Made by a program: the position numbers and the translations under genes
Virus record (IMG/VR): IMGVR_UViG_3300042269_000036
Reading direction: 5' to 3' (one strand)
Source: a virus
Length of the DNA: 43,647 nt
In this document: piece after piece, positions 1 through 43,647 of the stretch
How positions within the stretch are numbered: the first letter of the stretch is position 1
How the letters are laid out: each line of letters begins with the position of its first letter
The notes under the pieces: model-generated
What the model saw: only the letters and a program-made list of their open reading frames with translations
What the model was told of the DNA's origin: nothing
Database searches by the model: none

Positions 1-127
1 TTGCCCCTGAACCACCTGGCACCGCTCACAGCGAGGTGGTCACAAGGTGGGAATGCCGCCACAAATGCAATCCGACTTCGGCTTACTGGCGGCAACCACG
101 GGCGCGTCAAGTCGGCGTGTACCTTAT
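1..127. repeat. Terminal direct repeat, left copy (identical to 43521..43647)
   Basis: Both termini read base by base: ttgcccctgaaccacctggc...gtcggcgtgtaccttat, 127 nt, no mismatch. Confidence 0.97.
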
Positions 128-148
128 GTAGCCTTCCATTGGTCGTTA

Positions 149-157
149 CCCCCCCCC
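149..157 (-). repeat. Homopolymer, C9 on plus strand = G9 in the coding strand of the methyltransferase-like gene
   Basis: ggtcgttaCC CCCCCCCgat counted directly. Confidence 0.95.
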
Positions 158-353
158 GATTCATAAGCAACAGGGTGCTGAAGATCAACGATCCAGCACT
201 CAAAACCGGCGTCAAGCCACGGCTCGACCATCTTTCCTGTCACGTCGTACAGGCTTATAACTGTATCCTTCATACGTTCTCCAATGTCAGTGCATGGGCA
301 CGTTTAACCATACGGTGAAGCGGATTCGCTACGCTCTCCGCTTACCTTCATCG

Positions 354-1047: not shown

Positions 1048-1593
1048 TTATGCTCCACAATGAACCAGATCGTGAACAATTGGAGCCATCGGGAAGAAGC
1101 TATTGTCATTTTTCAATGACCAACATCCCTTTTCTTCGTCCCACACAATCGTAAAAACATCATGCTCGCCCCATGCCGGATACCGAACTGTATCGTGCTC
1201 CCAAAACTCGTTACCTTCTCCATCGGTAAAGCCTGTCCATAGTTCGATATCAAGCAAGATCGGCTTCTCAGTTTCTTGGTCATACCCGGCAAAACCAATC
1301 AGCGTTCCATCGTTTACATGATGGTAAATCTCGGCAATAGCATTGTGGTAAAATAGGTAGTTGCCGTTTTCTCTACTTCTCCCTCTTAGCTTAATGTCCA
1401 TTGTCTTCACCTCTCCAGTATTTGTTATCAAGCTCGTTATAAAGCCCGTAAAGTTCTCCCCTTGTTTGCTCGTCGGCGTTCTTATATTTCTCTTTAACCA
1501 CTTGCCGACAAAATCACCTTCTTTGATTTCAATGGCGTCAAGACCGTGCTGCTTGAGCTTTTCGCCTTTAAAGAGTCCAAGTTGTCCGTTCAC
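1048..1593 (-). CDS. Hypothetical protein, C-terminal half YopX-like by eye (181 aa)
   Basis: GTG start overlaps the stop of the upstream gene (ATGTGA) with GGAGG RBS. LLDIELWTGFTDGEGNEFWEHD...VFTIVWDEEKGCWSL resembles the YopX-type beta domain (from memory). Confidence 0.5.
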   Translation of the reverse strand: MNGQLGLFKGEKLKQHGLDAIEIKEGDFVGKWLKRNIRTPTSKQGENFTGFITSLITNTGEVKTMDIKLRGRSRENGNYLFYHNAIAEIYHHVNDGTLIGFAGYDQETEKPILLDIELWTGFTDGEGNEFWEHDTVRYPAWGEHDVFTIVWDEEKGCWSLKNDNSFFPMAPIVHDLVHCGA

Positions 1594-2858
1594 ATTGCCT
1601 CCATAATTTGCGTTACAAGTTCAATCCTGTCGCCTATGTGCCGCATGACGTTGGTTGCCATGCTGTTGCCGAGAGCCTTGTACCGTGGCCCATCAGGGCA
1701 TTGCTCTTCCGGTTTGTCGCGCCACGGTATACGGGTGTAGTTGTCAGGAAAAGCTTGTAGGCGTTCACATTCAACAGGGGTTAGACGGCGTACTTGCATG
1801 TTTGTCATGACATTTGCGGCATTGCGTCCTGTTGCGTTTTGGTTGGTGGCCAAAGAGTGCATAATTTCGCCAGTTAAAACGTCTCCAACTTGGTTCTGTG
1901 TGAACGCAACAGCCTGTCCTTGGGTCTGGTCAAGCGTATATGCCACGCTGTCCGAGAAGCCGTAGCCGTTGCTTGATGTCTGCGCTGTGCGGATGGCCAC
2001 CGCCTGTTGGCTGTTGGCCCCCAACGCAAAGCTCCTTTCATTGCTGCTTACGGGGTCTTGTGTGGCGTGAAAACATATCGGCGCACCGTCCCGGTTGCAG
2101 TTGAGAGCCGGGGAAAAATTCTGCGTTATCTCGGCGTTGGCTTGCCCGGATGACATGCAGACAAATTGCCTCGTCCCACCCTGCCCCCCTCTGAGCAGAG
2201 GCCCGTAATGCTCTATACTTGCGTTGCATTCTTCATCAAGGCCAATCGCAGGGCTTGCGGCAACTCTTTGCCCCGTTTGTCTGCTCGGCGCAGAATCCCC
2301 CGACAAGCTTTCGCGCTCAAAAAGTACCGCTGCGGCAGGTCGCCAGTCTCCAAGATATCCGACAACGAACACACGCCTTCGTCTTTGAGGCACAGCCCGT
2401 CTATGTGATTCCACTCGCACGAATTGAGCGTCAAAAACCCGGTAGGCGAACCCATACCCGAGTTCGGCCAGCATCCCGAGGAAGGTTCCAAAATCCCTGC
2501 CTCCGTTAGATGACAAGACCCCAGGGACGTTCTCCCATACCAACCATGTGGGCCGATATTTTGAAGCAATCGCACCAAAGATAAGCATGAGGTTCCCCCG
2601 TGGGTCAGCAAGCCCCTTTCGAAGTCCTGCGACTGAGAACGATTGACATGGGGTGCCTCCGACGAGAACATCGATATCTGCATCTGACCACTCCTTGTAT
2701 TTTGTCATGTCGCCATAGTTCGGCGTTTGTGGGTAACGATGTTGCAGGACGGCACACGGGAACGGCTCAATTTCGCTGTAAAACGCCGCTTTCCATCCAA
2801 GCGGCTCCCACGCCACTGTTGCAGCTTCAATCCCGCTGCATACGCTTCCGTAAGTCAC
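1590..2858 (-). CDS. dcm: DNA (cytosine-5) methyltransferase, Dcm type
   Basis: Motifs CSGIEAAT (I), GGTPCQSFS (IV), WENVPG (VI), QRRRRVF (VIII), ALGNSMA (X). Preferred start GTG 2858 (AGGAGG 5 nt upstream, overlaps upstream stop). The track start at 2981 is an unsupported 5' extension. Confidence 0.92.
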   Translation of the reverse strand: MTYGSVCSGIEAATVAWEPLGWKAAFYSEIEPFPCAVLQHRYPQTPNYGDMTKYKEWSDADIDVLVGGTPCQSFSVAGLRKGLADPRGNLMLIFGAIASKYRPTWLVWENVPGVLSSNGGRDFGTFLGMLAELGYGFAYRVFDAQFVRVESHRRAVPQRRRRVFVVGYLGDWRPAAAVLFERESLSGDSAPSRQTGQRVAASPAIGLDEECNASIEHYGPLLRGGQGGTRQFVCMSSGQANAEITQNFSPALNCNRDGAPICFHATQDPVSSNERSFALGANSQQAVAIRTAQTSSNGYGFSDSVAYTLDQTQGQAVAFTQNQVGDVLTGEIMHSLATNQNATGRNAANVMTNMQVRRLTPVECERLQAFPDNYTRIPWRDKPEEQCPDGPRYKALGNSMATNVMRHIGDRIELVTQIMEAM

Positions 2859-3112
2859 ATTGCCTCCTGTAGTCTGCGTTGCGTTTCTGCCAGCAGTTCG
2901 TCCTGCGTCATATACCGCCGCTCCCACCGATTCTTCCCGAGAGTGTGGATCCCCTCTTGACCGCGATGATGAAACGGGCAAAGTGGGGTTGCCTTTTCAT
3001 GTTTGCGCTTTTCCCCGAACCTGCGCACATGATGAATTTCGGCGGGCATCCCGCATATCAGGCAGCCGAGCGCCGCCACTTTATCCAGGTAGTTGCTTTC
3101 TGCTTTGGTCAT
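2855..3112 (-). CDS. Ref-like / HNH-type small nuclease (85 aa)
   Basis: CLICGMPAEIHHVRRFG...PLCPFHHRG pattern. ATG 3112 overlaps the upstream stop (ATGA). The track start at 3361 is rejected. Confidence 0.65.
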   Translation of the reverse strand: MTKAESNYLDKVAALGCLICGMPAEIHHVRRFGEKRKHEKATPLCPFHHRGQEGIHTLGKNRWERRYMTQDELLAETQRRLQEAM

Positions 3113-3498
3113 ACCGCCACCCTCTCTTTCCACTCCACTCCATGCTCTGCGCCAAAACAGTAGATAAGCTCGATTAGCTCCGAAAACTCCGCCTTGCTCA
3201 TTTTGGAAGTGTGCGCCCCTATCACCACAAAGCCCCCGTCGATCCCAGGAACGGCACGTTGCTTTTTCAGCCCTGCGGTAAGCACGTCCTTCCACTCTTC
3301 CTTCGTGAGTTTCTGCCCGTACCATTCGACTTGCGTTGACAATTCGGTGAGCAAGGGCCACAGCAAAGCGTTCTGATCGAGTGAGCGTGTCGGCGGCTTA
3401 ATCTCAACCACCATCCCTTCCGGTGCGTTCTGTACTGCTGCAATGGCGCGTTGACGGGCGGTTTCGTGAGACAGGATAAAGCGTTTCTTGTCCCTCAC
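3109..3498 (-). CDS. ninB: NinB/Orf-family recombination mediator
   Basis: KPPTRSLDQNALLWPLLTELSTQVEWYGQKLTKEEWKDVLTAGL matches the NinB signature from memory. GTG 3498 overlaps the upstream TGA, with GGAGGTG RBS. Confidence 0.7.
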   Translation of the reverse strand: MRDKKRFILSHETARQRAIAAVQNAPEGMVVEIKPPTRSLDQNALLWPLLTELSTQVEWYGQKLTKEEWKDVLTAGLKKQRAVPGIDGGFVVIGAHTSKMSKAEFSELIELIYCFGAEHGVEWKERVAV

Positions 3499-5894: not shown

Positions 5895-6030
5895 TGTCTC
5901 CTCCGATTCTCGCTGCCTCGTCCGGAAAGTAGCTGGCAAGGCAGCGGTCACATATTCCGTGGGTTTCTCCCTCCTGATTGTCGTCAGTAAACCCCATTAC
6001 CGTTTTGCACCATGCACATCGGCGCGTCAT
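5806..6030 (-). CDS. Small zinc-ribbon protein (74 aa), hidden in the tail of a repeat-derived artefactual ORF
   Basis: ATG 6030 overlaps the TGA of the repeat-protein gene (ATGA). MTRRCAWCKTVMGF...THGICDRCL is a CxxC...HGICxxC pattern. The last 89 nt overlap gene 5631..5894 in another frame. Confidence 0.5.
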   Translation of the reverse strand: MTRRCAWCKTVMGFTDDNQEGETHGICDRCLASYFPDEAARIGGDNGNQTSHRKGYGVEPDEKLRGGRIFLHAV

Positions 6031-6719
6031 CGGTACAACTCCATGAACCTCAGCCGCTTGGCTACCATGACCGTTAGACGGTCGTTTTGTGAGTCCCAAG
6101 CAGCGTCCCGAGCAGCGGCCCAAGCAGCGTCCCGAGCAGCGGCCCGAGCAGCGTCCCGAGCAGCGGCCCGAGCAGCGTCCCGAGCAGCGGCCCCAGCAGC
6201 GGCCCAAGCAGCGTCCCGAGCAGCGGCCCGAGCAGCGTCCCGAGCAGCGGCCCAAGCAGCGGCCCGAGCAGCGGCCCAAGCAGCGGCCCGAGCAGCGGCC
6301 CAAGCAGCGGCCCGAGCAGCGGCCCAAGCAGCGGCCCCAGCAGCGTCCCGAATAGAATCATCGCCCGTTGCGAGGTAATCTTTTACAACCTGAGGAGCAT
6401 CCCATAAGTGGATAACGTCAAGTGCGCAGCTGCGAGCAAAGGTGCGTAAAATGTCGTCGCAATCTACACGCGCAAGATACGTGCGCTCGGTCGCACAGGA
6501 CTTGTCGCTGCCGTGCAGAATCTGGCCGCCAAGCTCTACCCGATAAAGAATGCTGCCGCTGGCATACATAAGCGCATCAATAAGCCGCTTGCTGGCATGC
6601 AATCCGTTCCCGCACAGTTCAAGTTCGCCCTCTACGGTGTGCGTCTTGCCGCACTGGACAGGGCGACCGTCGCCGTACCCGAGGGTTTCGTTTTCGTCGC
6701 AAAACCACCAACCATACAT
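6027..6719 (-). CDS. Protein with globular N-domain plus about 21 tandem AA(R/W)(A/D) tetrapeptide repeats (230 aa)
   Basis: ATG 6719 with AGGAGGG 5 nt upstream. N-domain MYGWWFCDENETLGYGDGRPV...LCGNGLHAS...RVEL; C-terminal AAWAAARAAAWAAARDAARAAARDAAW. Confidence 0.7.
   Translation of the reverse strand: MYGWWFCDENETLGYGDGRPVQCGKTHTVEGELELCGNGLHASKRLIDALMYASGSILYRVELGGQILHGSDKSCATERTYLARVDCDDILRTFARSCALDVIHLWDAPQVVKDYLATGDDSIRDAAGAAAWAAARAAAWAAARAAAWAAARAAAWAAARDAARAAARDAAWAAAGAAARDAARAAARDAARAAARDAAWAAARDAAWDSQNDRLTVMVAKRLRFMELYR
6094..6350. repeat. 12-bp GC-rich tandem repeat, about 21 units (plus-strand unit gcagcg[g/t]ccc[a/g]a)
   Basis: Direct reading; stop-free in several frames of both strands. 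Confidence 0.9.
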
Positions 6720-6733
6720 GTTCCCTCCTGTGT

Positions 6734-6910
6734 TCATCGGCATGACTCCATCATCTGCTGTGCATGCCGGGCTTCCAGCTGCGCGATGCGGTCCTCTCGC
6801 TCCATGCACTCCAGCAACCCCCACACAACTACGACGTAGAGGAACAAGATGCCAGCAAGGTAGCCACAGTTTTGTATAAACCACTTAACAGCACGATTCT
6901 TTGTTTCCAT
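6734..6910 (-). CDS. Small single-pass membrane protein (58 aa, below the ORF-track cutoff)
   Basis: Hand translation METKNRAVKWFIQNCGYLAGILFLYVVVVWGLLECMEREDRIAQLEARHAQQMMESCR. The stop lies 15 nt before the next ATG; overlaps the 3' end of 6885..7070 by 26 nt. Confidence 0.5.
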   Translation of the reverse strand: METKNRAVKWFIQNCGYLAGILFLYVVVVWGLLECMEREDRIAQLEARHAQQMMESCR

Positions 6911-39201: not shown

Positions 39202-41448
39202 TTATGCAATAAATGACATTTGCTCTGCGGTGTTGGTGTCGGCCTCAACGAGGTTTTTAACGGCCTGACTGAAATAACTGTCTTTCAATTCAACCCCGAC
39301 GAATTTTCTACCCATTTTCAATGACTGGTAGCCTTCTGACCCGATCCCGGCAAATGGCGAGAAAACCGTGTCGCCCTCATTGGTCCACAGTTGCAAGGAC
39401 CGTTCAATAACGTCGAGTTGCAACGGGCAAATGTGCCGTTCGTCTTTATCGTCGCGAGCGGAAGTACGCTGCAATGTGTTGGACGGGTTAATGTCCATCC
39501 AGACCGGGGATGCGTACCTTTGCCACACGTCGATTGACAAATTTTTCGTTTGTTTAAACGTCGACTGATCGCCCGCGAAATACTTAAGTTCACCGCACAC
39601 AGGTTCTGGGTTTTCCCCCGGTTTGCGCATGACCACCAGATAATCTGGTATGCCCTGACGCGACATGCAACTATCTTTTTTAAGTTGTTTGTGGAGTAAT
39701 CCAAGTGCCTTTGTGCGTTGCATGGCCGTTACCGGGTCCTTCCAAATAACCACTTCGCTGTGATATATCCAGCCAGCGTCCTGAAATGTTTTGATGAGTT
39801 GCCCGCGAAAATCCTTAATGCCGATAACCCCGTCGCGCGCTTTACTGGTCGGAAGATTCATACAATGAAACGCGCAGAGCCTCCCCGGCTTAGTAATACG
39901 CAACAGTTCCGGCACCAAGAAACTGAAATGGTCAGCAAATTCCTGATCCGTTTTACAGTTCCCCATGTCGCGGTCGCTGGCCGAGTAGGTATAAAGCGAT
40001 GCGAACGGCGGGGAAAAGATCGAAAAATGCACGCTGTCGTCGGGGATTTCCCGCGTTACGTCAACGCAATCGCCATGGTATAAGGTCCAATTTTCGGATG
40101 ATTCAACCCCACGCGCATAGTCAACAGTCTGACGCGTTGTGCCGTGGATCTCATCGGTGTTAATACCCGCCATATATTTCACCATTTCTGACGCCATCAA
40201 CTCCGCGTCAGCCTCTTTGCGTTCAATGTTTTTCACAACCGCCCCTTCCGTTTCTGCGGTCACGACATGGACTGTGACCTTGTTTTTCTGCCCGAACCGC
40301 CAGCATCGCCTAACCGCCTGATAAAATTGCTCATAGGAATCGGACAGTCCGAGAAAAATCATAGTGTCGCAATGTTGCCAATTCATGCCAAACCCGGCGA
40401 TGCTTGGTTTGGTGACAAGCGTTTTAACACTGCCATCCGAAAAGCCGAGCATGGCAGATTCTTTGTGCTCGTTTTTATCAGATCCTTTCACTTCTACCGC
40501 GCCGTCAATTAAATGTTTTGCTGCGGCAGATTCATCGTTGAGGTTGCACCATACTAGGCACGGTCCATTCGTGTTGTTGGCAATTTCTGCTGCGAGCTTG
40601 GCGCGTTTGCCCACAGTGGCTTTGCGCTCTTGCTGTCGCTCCTGCAACGTAAGCGCCTCGACCGGGAACAAAAACCCATCGGGAGCCTCATTCTTTTTGA
40701 CAACATGGTGTTTAATCTCAAGCGGCGGCAAAATAAATCCTCCGTCGTCATACCCAAGATCGGACGGTTTGCGAATCATGACTGCCCAGGACGCCACCCA
40801 TCGCCAGAAATCATTTTGAGCATGCCCTTTGATTCGCCATTTCTGCGTTTCTCCACCGTCATGCACAAAAAACATGCTTAACATTTCCACACGGCTCATC
40901 ACACCCAAAAACTCTGCATGGTTGCCTAGTTCCATGTGATCGTTCGGGGCGGGCGTTGCGGTACACGCCAGACGAAAGGCCGTGTTTTTGAACGCATCTA
41001 TAATCTCATTTCTTATTTTCCCGGTATAGCTCTTTAAAATTGATGATTCATCAAGGACGACACCAGCAAAATGGTCTGCATTAAATTTGCCAAGCATTTC
41101 ATAATTGGTTATTGTGATTCCTGATGAAACTTGTTCTTGGCTGCGGCAATACTTCACGTCAATGCCAAACTTCGCGCCCTCCCTAACGGTTTGCATTGAC
41201 ACGGCCAGCGGAGCCAGGATTAACACATCGCCGCCCGTATACTCATGAACATGCTTCCCCCACTCTAGCTGTATGGCTGTTTTGCCCATTCCACAATCGG
41301 CAAACAGCGCTGCCCTCCCGCGCTTTAACGCCCAACGAACAATGTCTTTCTGGAATTCGAACAGTGCCGGGTTTATTCCAACGTCTGCGCGTATTCCAGT
41401 TGCCGCGTCCGCCACGGCTTTTTTCTGCAAAAAGTCCTCGTATCGCAT
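39202..41448 (-). CDS. Fusion of SNF2/DEAD-type helicase and beta-class N6A/N4C DNA methyltransferase (748 aa)
   Basis: DCGMGKT (Walker A), VVLDESS (DExx), helicase C block QAVRRCWRFGQ. Then FSPPFASLY (motif IV) precedes FSPFAGIGSEG (motif I). Confidence 0.85.
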   Translation of the reverse strand: MRYEDFLQKKAVADAATGIRADVGINPALFEFQKDIVRWALKRGRAALFADCGMGKTAIQLEWGKHVHEYTGGDVLILAPLAVSMQTVREGAKFGIDVKYCRSQEQVSSGITITNYEMLGKFNADHFAGVVLDESSILKSYTGKIRNEIIDAFKNTAFRLACTATPAPNDHMELGNHAEFLGVMSRVEMLSMFFVHDGGETQKWRIKGHAQNDFWRWVASWAVMIRKPSDLGYDDGGFILPPLEIKHHVVKKNEAPDGFLFPVEALTLQERQQERKATVGKRAKLAAEIANNTNGPCLVWCNLNDESAAAKHLIDGAVEVKGSDKNEHKESAMLGFSDGSVKTLVTKPSIAGFGMNWQHCDTMIFLGLSDSYEQFYQAVRRCWRFGQKNKVTVHVVTAETEGAVVKNIERKEADAELMASEMVKYMAGINTDEIHGTTRQTVDYARGVESSENWTLYHGDCVDVTREIPDDSVHFSIFSPPFASLYTYSASDRDMGNCKTDQEFADHFSFLVPELLRITKPGRLCAFHCMNLPTSKARDGVIGIKDFRGQLIKTFQDAGWIYHSEVVIWKDPVTAMQRTKALGLLHKQLKKDSCMSRQGIPDYLVVMRKPGENPEPVCGELKYFAGDQSTFKQTKNLSIDVWQRYASPVWMDINPSNTLQRTSARDDKDERHICPLQLDVIERSLQLWTNEGDTVFSPFAGIGSEGYQSLKMGRKFVGVELKDSYFSQAVKNLVEADTNTAEQMSFIA

Positions 41449-43135: not shown

Positions 43136-43647
43136 TTAAACGGCCCTCGCCAGCAGTGGTTTTCCATTGGCCTCAAAAACAGCCTTCGCGAAACCGACCG
43201 GCGTTGCCGACCTGATATTGTGACGTTCGGAAGACGGCGGACATTTGTGTATCCTGTCGTCTGGTTCTGCCATCCCATCTGCCTCGTATCGTTCCGGCAT
43301 CACAAAGCCGTTGCCTGTCCACAGGCAGGTCTTCTTGGTGTAATTGTCCTGCCGCGCCCACCCCGTAAAATGATGCGGATGGAAACTATGGTCAGGCTTT
43401 CTCCAATGGCTTGAAATATTGCTGACAGGGTTTTCTATCAAATACGGCGCTCCGGCCCATTCGCAAAACTCCGCAGCCGTTGCGAACATTGCAATACTCA
43501 TTTCCAGCCGCCTAAGCCCCTTGCCCCTGAACCACCTGGCACCGCTCACAGCGAGGTGGTCACAAGGTGGGAATGCCGCCACAAATGCAATCCGACTTCG
43601 GCTTACTGGCGGCAACCACGGGCGCGTCAAGTCGGCGTGTACCTTAT
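43136..43647 (-). CDS. 3' (catalytic) part of the junction-spanning C5 DNA-methyltransferase-like gene
   Basis: The ORF runs off the window end and continues at 128..164 after circularisation. FPPCDHLAVSG (PC motif), YLIENPVS (ENV-like), RSATPVGFAKAV (motif X-like). Confidence 0.65.
   Translation of the reverse strand, partial: KVHADLTRPWLPPVSRSRIAFVAAFPPCDHLAVSGARWFRGKGLRRLEMSIAMFATAAEFCEWAGAPYLIENPVSNISSHWRKPDHSFHPHHFTGWARQDNYTKKTCLWTGNGFVMPERYEADGMAEPDDRIHKCPPSSERHNIRSATPVGFAKAVFEANGKPLLARAV
43521..43647. repeat. Terminal direct repeat, right copy (identical to 1..127)
   Basis: See left copy. Confidence 0.97.

Follow-up and report, generated by a model that had tools for sequence, protein, structure and literature searches.

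A G9 tract splitting a compact C5-methyltransferase-like phage gene as a probable slippage-prone ON/OFF site

The window analyzed here, a stretch of 43,647 nt of viral DNA (IMG/VR record IMGVR_UViG_3300042269_000036), is a closed phage genome with a true length of 43,520 bp that carries a terminal overlap, positions 1-127 being 100% identical to positions 43521-43647 (repeat family D2). This 127-nt repeat adds no sequence but is the overlap left by the assembly of a closed circular contig, and its length suggests a short-read de Bruijn assembly with k = 127. The phage possesses three methyltransferase-like genes, all on the minus strand: a classical C5 methylase gene (1590..2981; PF00145, E = 8e-48), a gene for a 748-aa fusion of an SNF2 helicase with an N6_N4 methylase, recognized by Pfam search (39202..41448), and, at the contig end, a split gene that is the subject of this work. 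Elsewhere in the genome, a 12-nt unit is repeated in about 20 tandem copies at 6047-6399, within a minus-strand ORF (6027..6884).

The split gene opens with ATG 273, preceded at a distance of 5 nt by a Shine-Dalgarno-like GGAG (279..282, minus strand) read from the sequence. The N-terminal frame (124..273, minus strand) includes a motif I-like 'LYDVTG' region and a VD.QH strand and, with the sequence as it stands, ends after 49 aa at TAA 126..124, downstream of a G9 homopolymer (149..157, minus strand; C9 on the plus strand) that lies in codons for Ser-Gly-Gly-(Val) and whose in-frame length is G8. The catalytic part is found in the +1 frame, starting from ATG 164 (1..164, minus strand) with FPPC, crossing the contig end from window position 1 to 43520, and continuing with IENPVS, which holds the ENP motif, and the C-terminal helices (43136..43520, minus strand) to TAA 43138..43136. 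Since window positions 1-127 equal 43521-43647, the apparent junction within the methylase gene is the assembly overlap. The initial annotation had described a methylase-like gene broken at G9 and spanning 218 codons across the junction; reading the minus-strand frames directly, we found all of its coordinates to be right, and its codon count already allows for the 127-nt overlap. A split enzyme made of two subunits was set aside, since ATG 164 has no obvious ribosome-binding site and the natural G8 alleles described below encode one chain; this start is also unused by JGI's gene caller. The C9 is the sole G/C run of at least 7 in the genome, the next longest being 6. As a first-order composition model expects up to about 0.36 such runs per genome, its occurrence is unremarkable by itself, and the noteworthy aspect is its exact coincidence with the frame change.

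The idea that a profile search would place the gene among C5 methyltransferases was borne out in part. Both halves match the phrog_757 'DNA methyltransferase' profile, with E = 5.9e-9 for the N part (profile positions 13-46) and E = 1.3e-53 for the C part (positions 73-222 of the 247 in the profile). A Pfam search with both halves at E values up to 1 returned no match, PF00145 included, while the identical search does pick up the other, classical C5 enzyme of the genome; the NCBIfam models gave no match to the intact allele, and HMMER with a 37-sequence profile gave no sequence-level match to PDB chains. With the Pfam, NCBIfam, and PDB sequence searches empty, the family placement therefore rests on PHROG, motifs, and fold. 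Using tblastn, relatives were found in 1573 phage records. Most of them bear the annotation DNA (cytosine) methylase, and they include a 'putative DNA-cytosine methylase' of Escherichia phage D6 (54% identity), many proteins of Arthrobacter phages, and the 216-aa product of an intact gene in phage Cote, a typical relative. Family members are for the most part intact and free of long G/C runs. The compact family, represented by PHROG 757, by the phage D6 protein, and by an Arthrobacter phage 'DNA methylase' of about 216 aa, shares length, motifs, and fold with the gene studied here, which differs in being split at G9. It had been considered that the 49-aa fragment might be unrelated to methylases and that homologues might begin at ATG 164; on the contrary, the fragment aligns with the N termini of more than 50 intact relatives, so that it is homologous to the family N terminus, and the relatives do not start at the position of ATG 164.

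In an alignment of 37 relatives, C77, E120, N121, P122, and R194 are invariant, and the first 40 residues are conserved as SL.D.TG....PW..AGY.C..VD.QH. The Pro-Cys of C5 methyltransferase motif IV is present as FPPC with the invariant Cys77, which in the window lies in the +1 frame, and motif VI is represented by E120-N121-P122 followed by V123 (IENPVS), the ENP variant of ENV. The motif I region, SL(F/Y)D.TG..(..)PW, follows the strand formed by residues 4-8 of the structural model; its position fits and its glycine pattern is non-canonical. The intact natural 218-aa allele, modeled by AlphaFold2 with a 36-row alignment, gave a pLDDT of 90.5 and a pTM of 0.88. When this model was compared with the PDB by Foldseek, the top seven matches were all catalytic domains of DNMT3A or DNMT3B (E values of 1e-6 to 4e-5; PDB 2qrv, 8te3, and 6kda at 1e-6 to 2e-5), with a probability of 1.0 and a TM score of about 0.5, and DNMT2 appeared lower down; a viral structure library gave matches to proteins of the family and to classical cytosine methylases of viruses. 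DNMT3A and DNMT3B resemble the phage protein in having the Pro-Cys motif, an ENV-type motif, and a target-recognition region that is short, but sequence identity is only 13 to 14% and the phage protein is shorter by about 60 residues. By its motifs and predicted fold, the protein is C5-methyltransferase-like while standing outside the curated sequence models; a literature search for biochemical characterization of this compact methylase family found none. The homopolymer codes for Ser-Gly-Gly-Val at residues 39-42, placed by the model in a turn right before a beta hairpin. This turn connects the AdoMet-binding N-terminal strands with the catalytic Pro-Cys strand, and its length varies across the family.

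A search of the protein collection returned roughly 6,400 members of the family. For comparison of the tract among close relatives, the 90% protein cluster around the C part was collected, the corresponding DNA was fetched, and the tract was read in the contigs. The cluster contains a 182-aa product (P0003) called on another contig and beginning MNRGGVTT, which is possible only from G9, and shorter products (121, 122, and 117 aa) whose called starts lie downstream of a break, as well as two forms that are full-length (218 and 223 aa) and have the sequence ...AYESGGVTTNG..., exactly as predicted for G8. The initial annotation had proposed that G8 would yield a single 218-aa protein, and natural G8 alleles (P0126) encode precisely that product, with the in-frame codons TCG GGG GGG GTA for Ser-Gly-Gly-Val. 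It had also pointed to related phages as the place to look, and both alleles do exist there on near-identical DNA: among the contigs inspected (97 to 100% identity), G9 was present in the window and nine contigs (L083-L086, which are JGI contigs from four samples and identical to the window; L096 from Logan; L097-L098; and L099-L100) and G8 in ten (L087-L091, L092-L095, and L101), with no G7 or G10 at this site. Twenty public contigs (JGI and Logan) encode the 49-aa product diagnostic of G9. The JGI metagenomes concerned are 3300042273, 3300042274, 3300042279, and 3300042281, and run SRR11802669 gave a G9 contig and run SRR11802587 a G8 contig. A scan of IMG/VR for exact matches to the flanks of the tract returned none, and in the nearest virus record the methylase-gene region had no match.

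Nine variable sites within the gene define five haplotypes, on which the tract states are distributed as follows: H1 (the window and L083-L086) is all G9, H2 (L087-L091) is all G8, H3 (GCCCCAGTG) includes G8 in L092-L095 and G9 in L097-L098, H4 (L096, L099, and L100) is all G9, and H5 (L101) is G8. Within H3, a single G is the sole difference between L092 (G8) and L097 (G9) over the roughly 2.5 kb that they share, while a comparison of L093 with L097 over 2206 nt shows, besides the G8/G9 run, one SNP and a T8/T9 run. The T8/T9 run is intergenic (about position 1385 of L093), approximately 230 nt upstream of the methylase gene, and two of the three differences in these 2.2 kb are thus changes in homopolymer length. 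From this distribution we infer at least two changes in tract state: the extra G was either gained once and later lost again, or gained independently three times. The uniform G9 of H1 in the inspected contigs suggests an OFF allele that is fairly stable and does not flicker rapidly. The uniformity of H1 and H2 indicates a state stable enough to be linked to lineage, and the samples may be replicates of one community. In L097, an 84.6-kb JGI contig, the near-identical G9 methylase gene (2228-3369) lies in a different neighborhood, adjoining an N6_N4 methylase gene and a BglII-like endonuclease gene; the methylase gene therefore moves between genomic contexts.

The wider family was sampled independently of any tract by searching IMG/VR with peptide patterns, which yielded 80 loci; the distinct family genes from IMG/VR numbered 58. 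The gene is broken or split in 8 of the 80 loci, namely, L006 (nonsense), L079, and six loci with single-base frameshifts. The latter correspond to 5 distinct genes of the 58, all five of which are frameshifted at a G/C run of at least 7, and each opens without a stop after a one-base change in the run in silico. The runs concerned lie at several sites: G9 at the site of the window's tract in L005 (1033-1041); G9 located 47 nt nearer the FPPC codons in L054; G7 at a Thr-Gly-Gly-Gly-Phe site in L023 (3331-3337)/L024 and in L076 (513-519); and C9 at an Ala-Pro-Pro-Gly site in L056 (3392-3400). The Ala-Pro-Pro-Gly site also exists in an intact form, with C8, in L027 (1228-1235), and is thus a second ON/OFF site; over 1772 nt the identity between L027 and L056 is 99.8% (3 mismatches and one gap). 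The Thr-Gly-Gly-Gly-Phe site, the third tract site, is occupied by in-frame G8 in L011 (973-980) and L015 (505-512). A separate lineage contains a split gene with G9 (L102) and an intact one with G8 (L103), the two sharing 86% DNA identity. A degenerate pattern combining G7 with FPPCDH codons, searched as exact matches, found L005 alone in IMG/VR and, in a metagenome collection, one true relative (L107) together with five chance matches. The G9 of L107 (316-324) is in frame, the preceding codon being TGG versus ATG in L005, with 86.5% identity overall; L005 may hence owe its extra base to an A next to the run and not to a further G, or L107 may be a compensated form. Inactivation also occurs away from homopolymers: L006 has an in-frame stop at about position 3190 (EFCE*SEAPY) in an otherwise conserved gene, and the gene is frameshifted in two cultured T1-like phages, Citrobacter phage BSwS KMM3 (L111) and Shigella phage pSf-1 (L112), where the two-piece tblastn matches show no long homopolymer at the break and the pieces are annotated as hypothetical proteins. 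Such breaks away from runs, that of L006 included, fit a dispensable gene.

We favor, with a probability of roughly 65%, the reading that the tract at 149..157 is a real slippage-prone site at which the gene is ON with G8 and OFF with G9, and that it is OFF in this genome. The proposed mechanism would comprise the following steps: (i) the gene would code for a C5-cytosine-methyltransferase-like enzyme of about 218 aa belonging to a large phage family; (ii) slippage of DNA polymerase would add or remove a G in the run coding for Ser-Gly-Gly-Val; (iii) with G8 the 218-aa protein would be made, while with G9 translation would end after 49 residues and the catalytic part would be out of frame, probably with loss of activity; (iv) this phage would be in the OFF state for the split methylase, with two other methylase genes remaining; and (v) the switching would be reversible. 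The possible benefit would be a hedge between hosts that cut unmethylated DNA and hosts with Type IV enzymes that cut methylated DNA. Such an adaptive bet-hedging layer is plausible but unproven.

The two alleles could also be produced by recurrent loss of function, with G8 arising by accident from Gly-Gly codons in a G+C-rich gene, the run acting as a mutational hot spot, and G9 marking a recently dead dispensable gene with no selected switching; we consider this explanation possible though doubtful. The abundance of tracts in the family was evaluated by shuffling synonymous codons within each of the 58 distinct genes, with one-base repairs made in silico. G/C runs of at least 8 were observed in 7 genes versus 2.9 expected under the shuffle (P = 0.027) and G runs alone in 4 versus 2.3 expected (P = 0.2), so that the frequency of tracts appears weakly above that expected from codon usage. 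This closeness to the expectation is what loss of function would predict, and the uniform G9 of H1, the two further methylase genes of the genome, and the breaks located off the runs (the nonsense codon of L006 and the frameshifts of the cultured isolates) point the same way. What loss of function explains less easily is the retention of the run in three lineages whose proteins differ by about 25%, and within pairs whose DNA differs by 14%, when one synonymous change would abolish it. All three lineages have GGG GGG GTA at this site, compared with agreement in all three at 21% of comparable fourfold sites, and, given that two of the three lineages were found via the tract, this conservation is suggestive as a sign of selection. 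Moreover, the G9 alleles show no damage in either half save for the single G, and the haplotype pattern would demand either reversion or three independent gains.

An error of sequencing or assembly, with a true genome of G8 and an ordinary intact gene, has in our estimation a slim chance. Homopolymers are classic sites of indel errors, and a systematic error would likewise put the frameshifts of the family at runs. Against this, the product specific to G9 was found on 20 contigs from several samples and two independent assembly pipelines, JGI and Logan, each of which gives both states, with G8 for other haplotypes, and the inspected contigs are all G9 in H1 and all G8 in H2. The terminal overlap, as noted above, suggests a short-read de Bruijn assembly, and consensus errors at 8- to 9-mers are rare in assemblies of that type. 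Because the state follows the haplotype across many samples and two assemblers, a random homopolymer error is hard to reconcile with the data, and G9 as an assembly artifact is judged unlikely from the contig comparison.

Least probable of all is recoding, by which the G9 allele would yield some full-length enzyme through +1 slippage of tRNA-Gly or transcriptional slippage and OFF would mean low: a +1 slip in GGG GGG G re-pairs perfectly and gives the exact G8 product, and G9 alleles are common and otherwise intact, but the shift site has no stop, rare codon, or recognizable stimulator, the distance to the zero-frame stop varies (8 codons in the window, 3 in L005, and 5 in L054), and the G8 alleles, which a programmed shift would not need, are about equally common. 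A programmed -1 frameshift on G GGG GGG was rejected, as it leads to the wrong frame, +1 (or -2) being required.

Beyond the slippage-prone tract itself, a broader proposition can be advanced, tentatively and as an unlikely rather than an expected outcome: that the compact C5-like phage family uses G/C homopolymers at several positions as selected contingency switches, by which methylating and non-methylating genomes would always coexist and hedge classical restriction-modification against methylation-dependent Type IV nucleases.

In bacteria, methyltransferases that homopolymers switch ON and OFF are a classical theme, and phasevarions rely on simple-sequence repeats in Type III mod and Type I hsd genes (Haemophilus, Neisseria, Helicobacter, and Campylobacter). 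These systems share with the gene described here a repeat within a methyltransferase ORF, slippage in which leads to ON/OFF states and a changed methylome. They differ in being cellular genes, usually parts of restriction-modification systems, that regulate host gene expression, whereas the present gene is an orphan phage gene whose expected effect is on the restriction sensitivity of the phage DNA itself. In phages, homopolymer contingency loci have been described in T2/T4 genes, e.g., agt and rIIA, and in other phages (Gomez, Barrick & Waters, bioRxiv 10.1101/2025.10.21.683753), and the same work cites poly-G tracts in receptor-binding genes of Campylobacter Fletchervirus (Sorensen et al. 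2021, as cited in 10.1101/2025.10.21.683753) and, for Bordetella phage BPP-1, a poly-G tract in a methylase gene (Liu et al. 2004, as cited in 10.1101/2025.10.21.683753). The BPP-1 protein Bpm was considered as a homologue and rejected, being annotated as an adenine methylase and so a member of a different family from the compact C5-like gene of the window. The likeness to the phage contingency loci lies in a homopolymer in an accessory gene that deals with host defense, a one-base change in length toggling the frame; the difference is that our evidence is comparative and drawn from metagenome contigs.

To conclude, the principle is already in print for other phages, and the gain made here is incremental. 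This study contributes a very small enzyme whose natural ON/OFF alleles occur on DNA that is otherwise the same, and it shows that the single-base frameshifts in an unbiased sample of the family all fall at G/C runs, at several different sites. Split methylase genes should be neither discarded nor silently repaired by annotators, and the family offers a simple test system, with a 218-aa enzyme and natural ON/OFF alleles one base apart. If the switch is functional, self-methylation of the phage would be a stochastic, heritable, and reversible trait, which would bear on the prediction of host range and restriction escape from phage genomes, and a 'broken' methylase in a metagenome-assembled phage would represent a state and not a loss.
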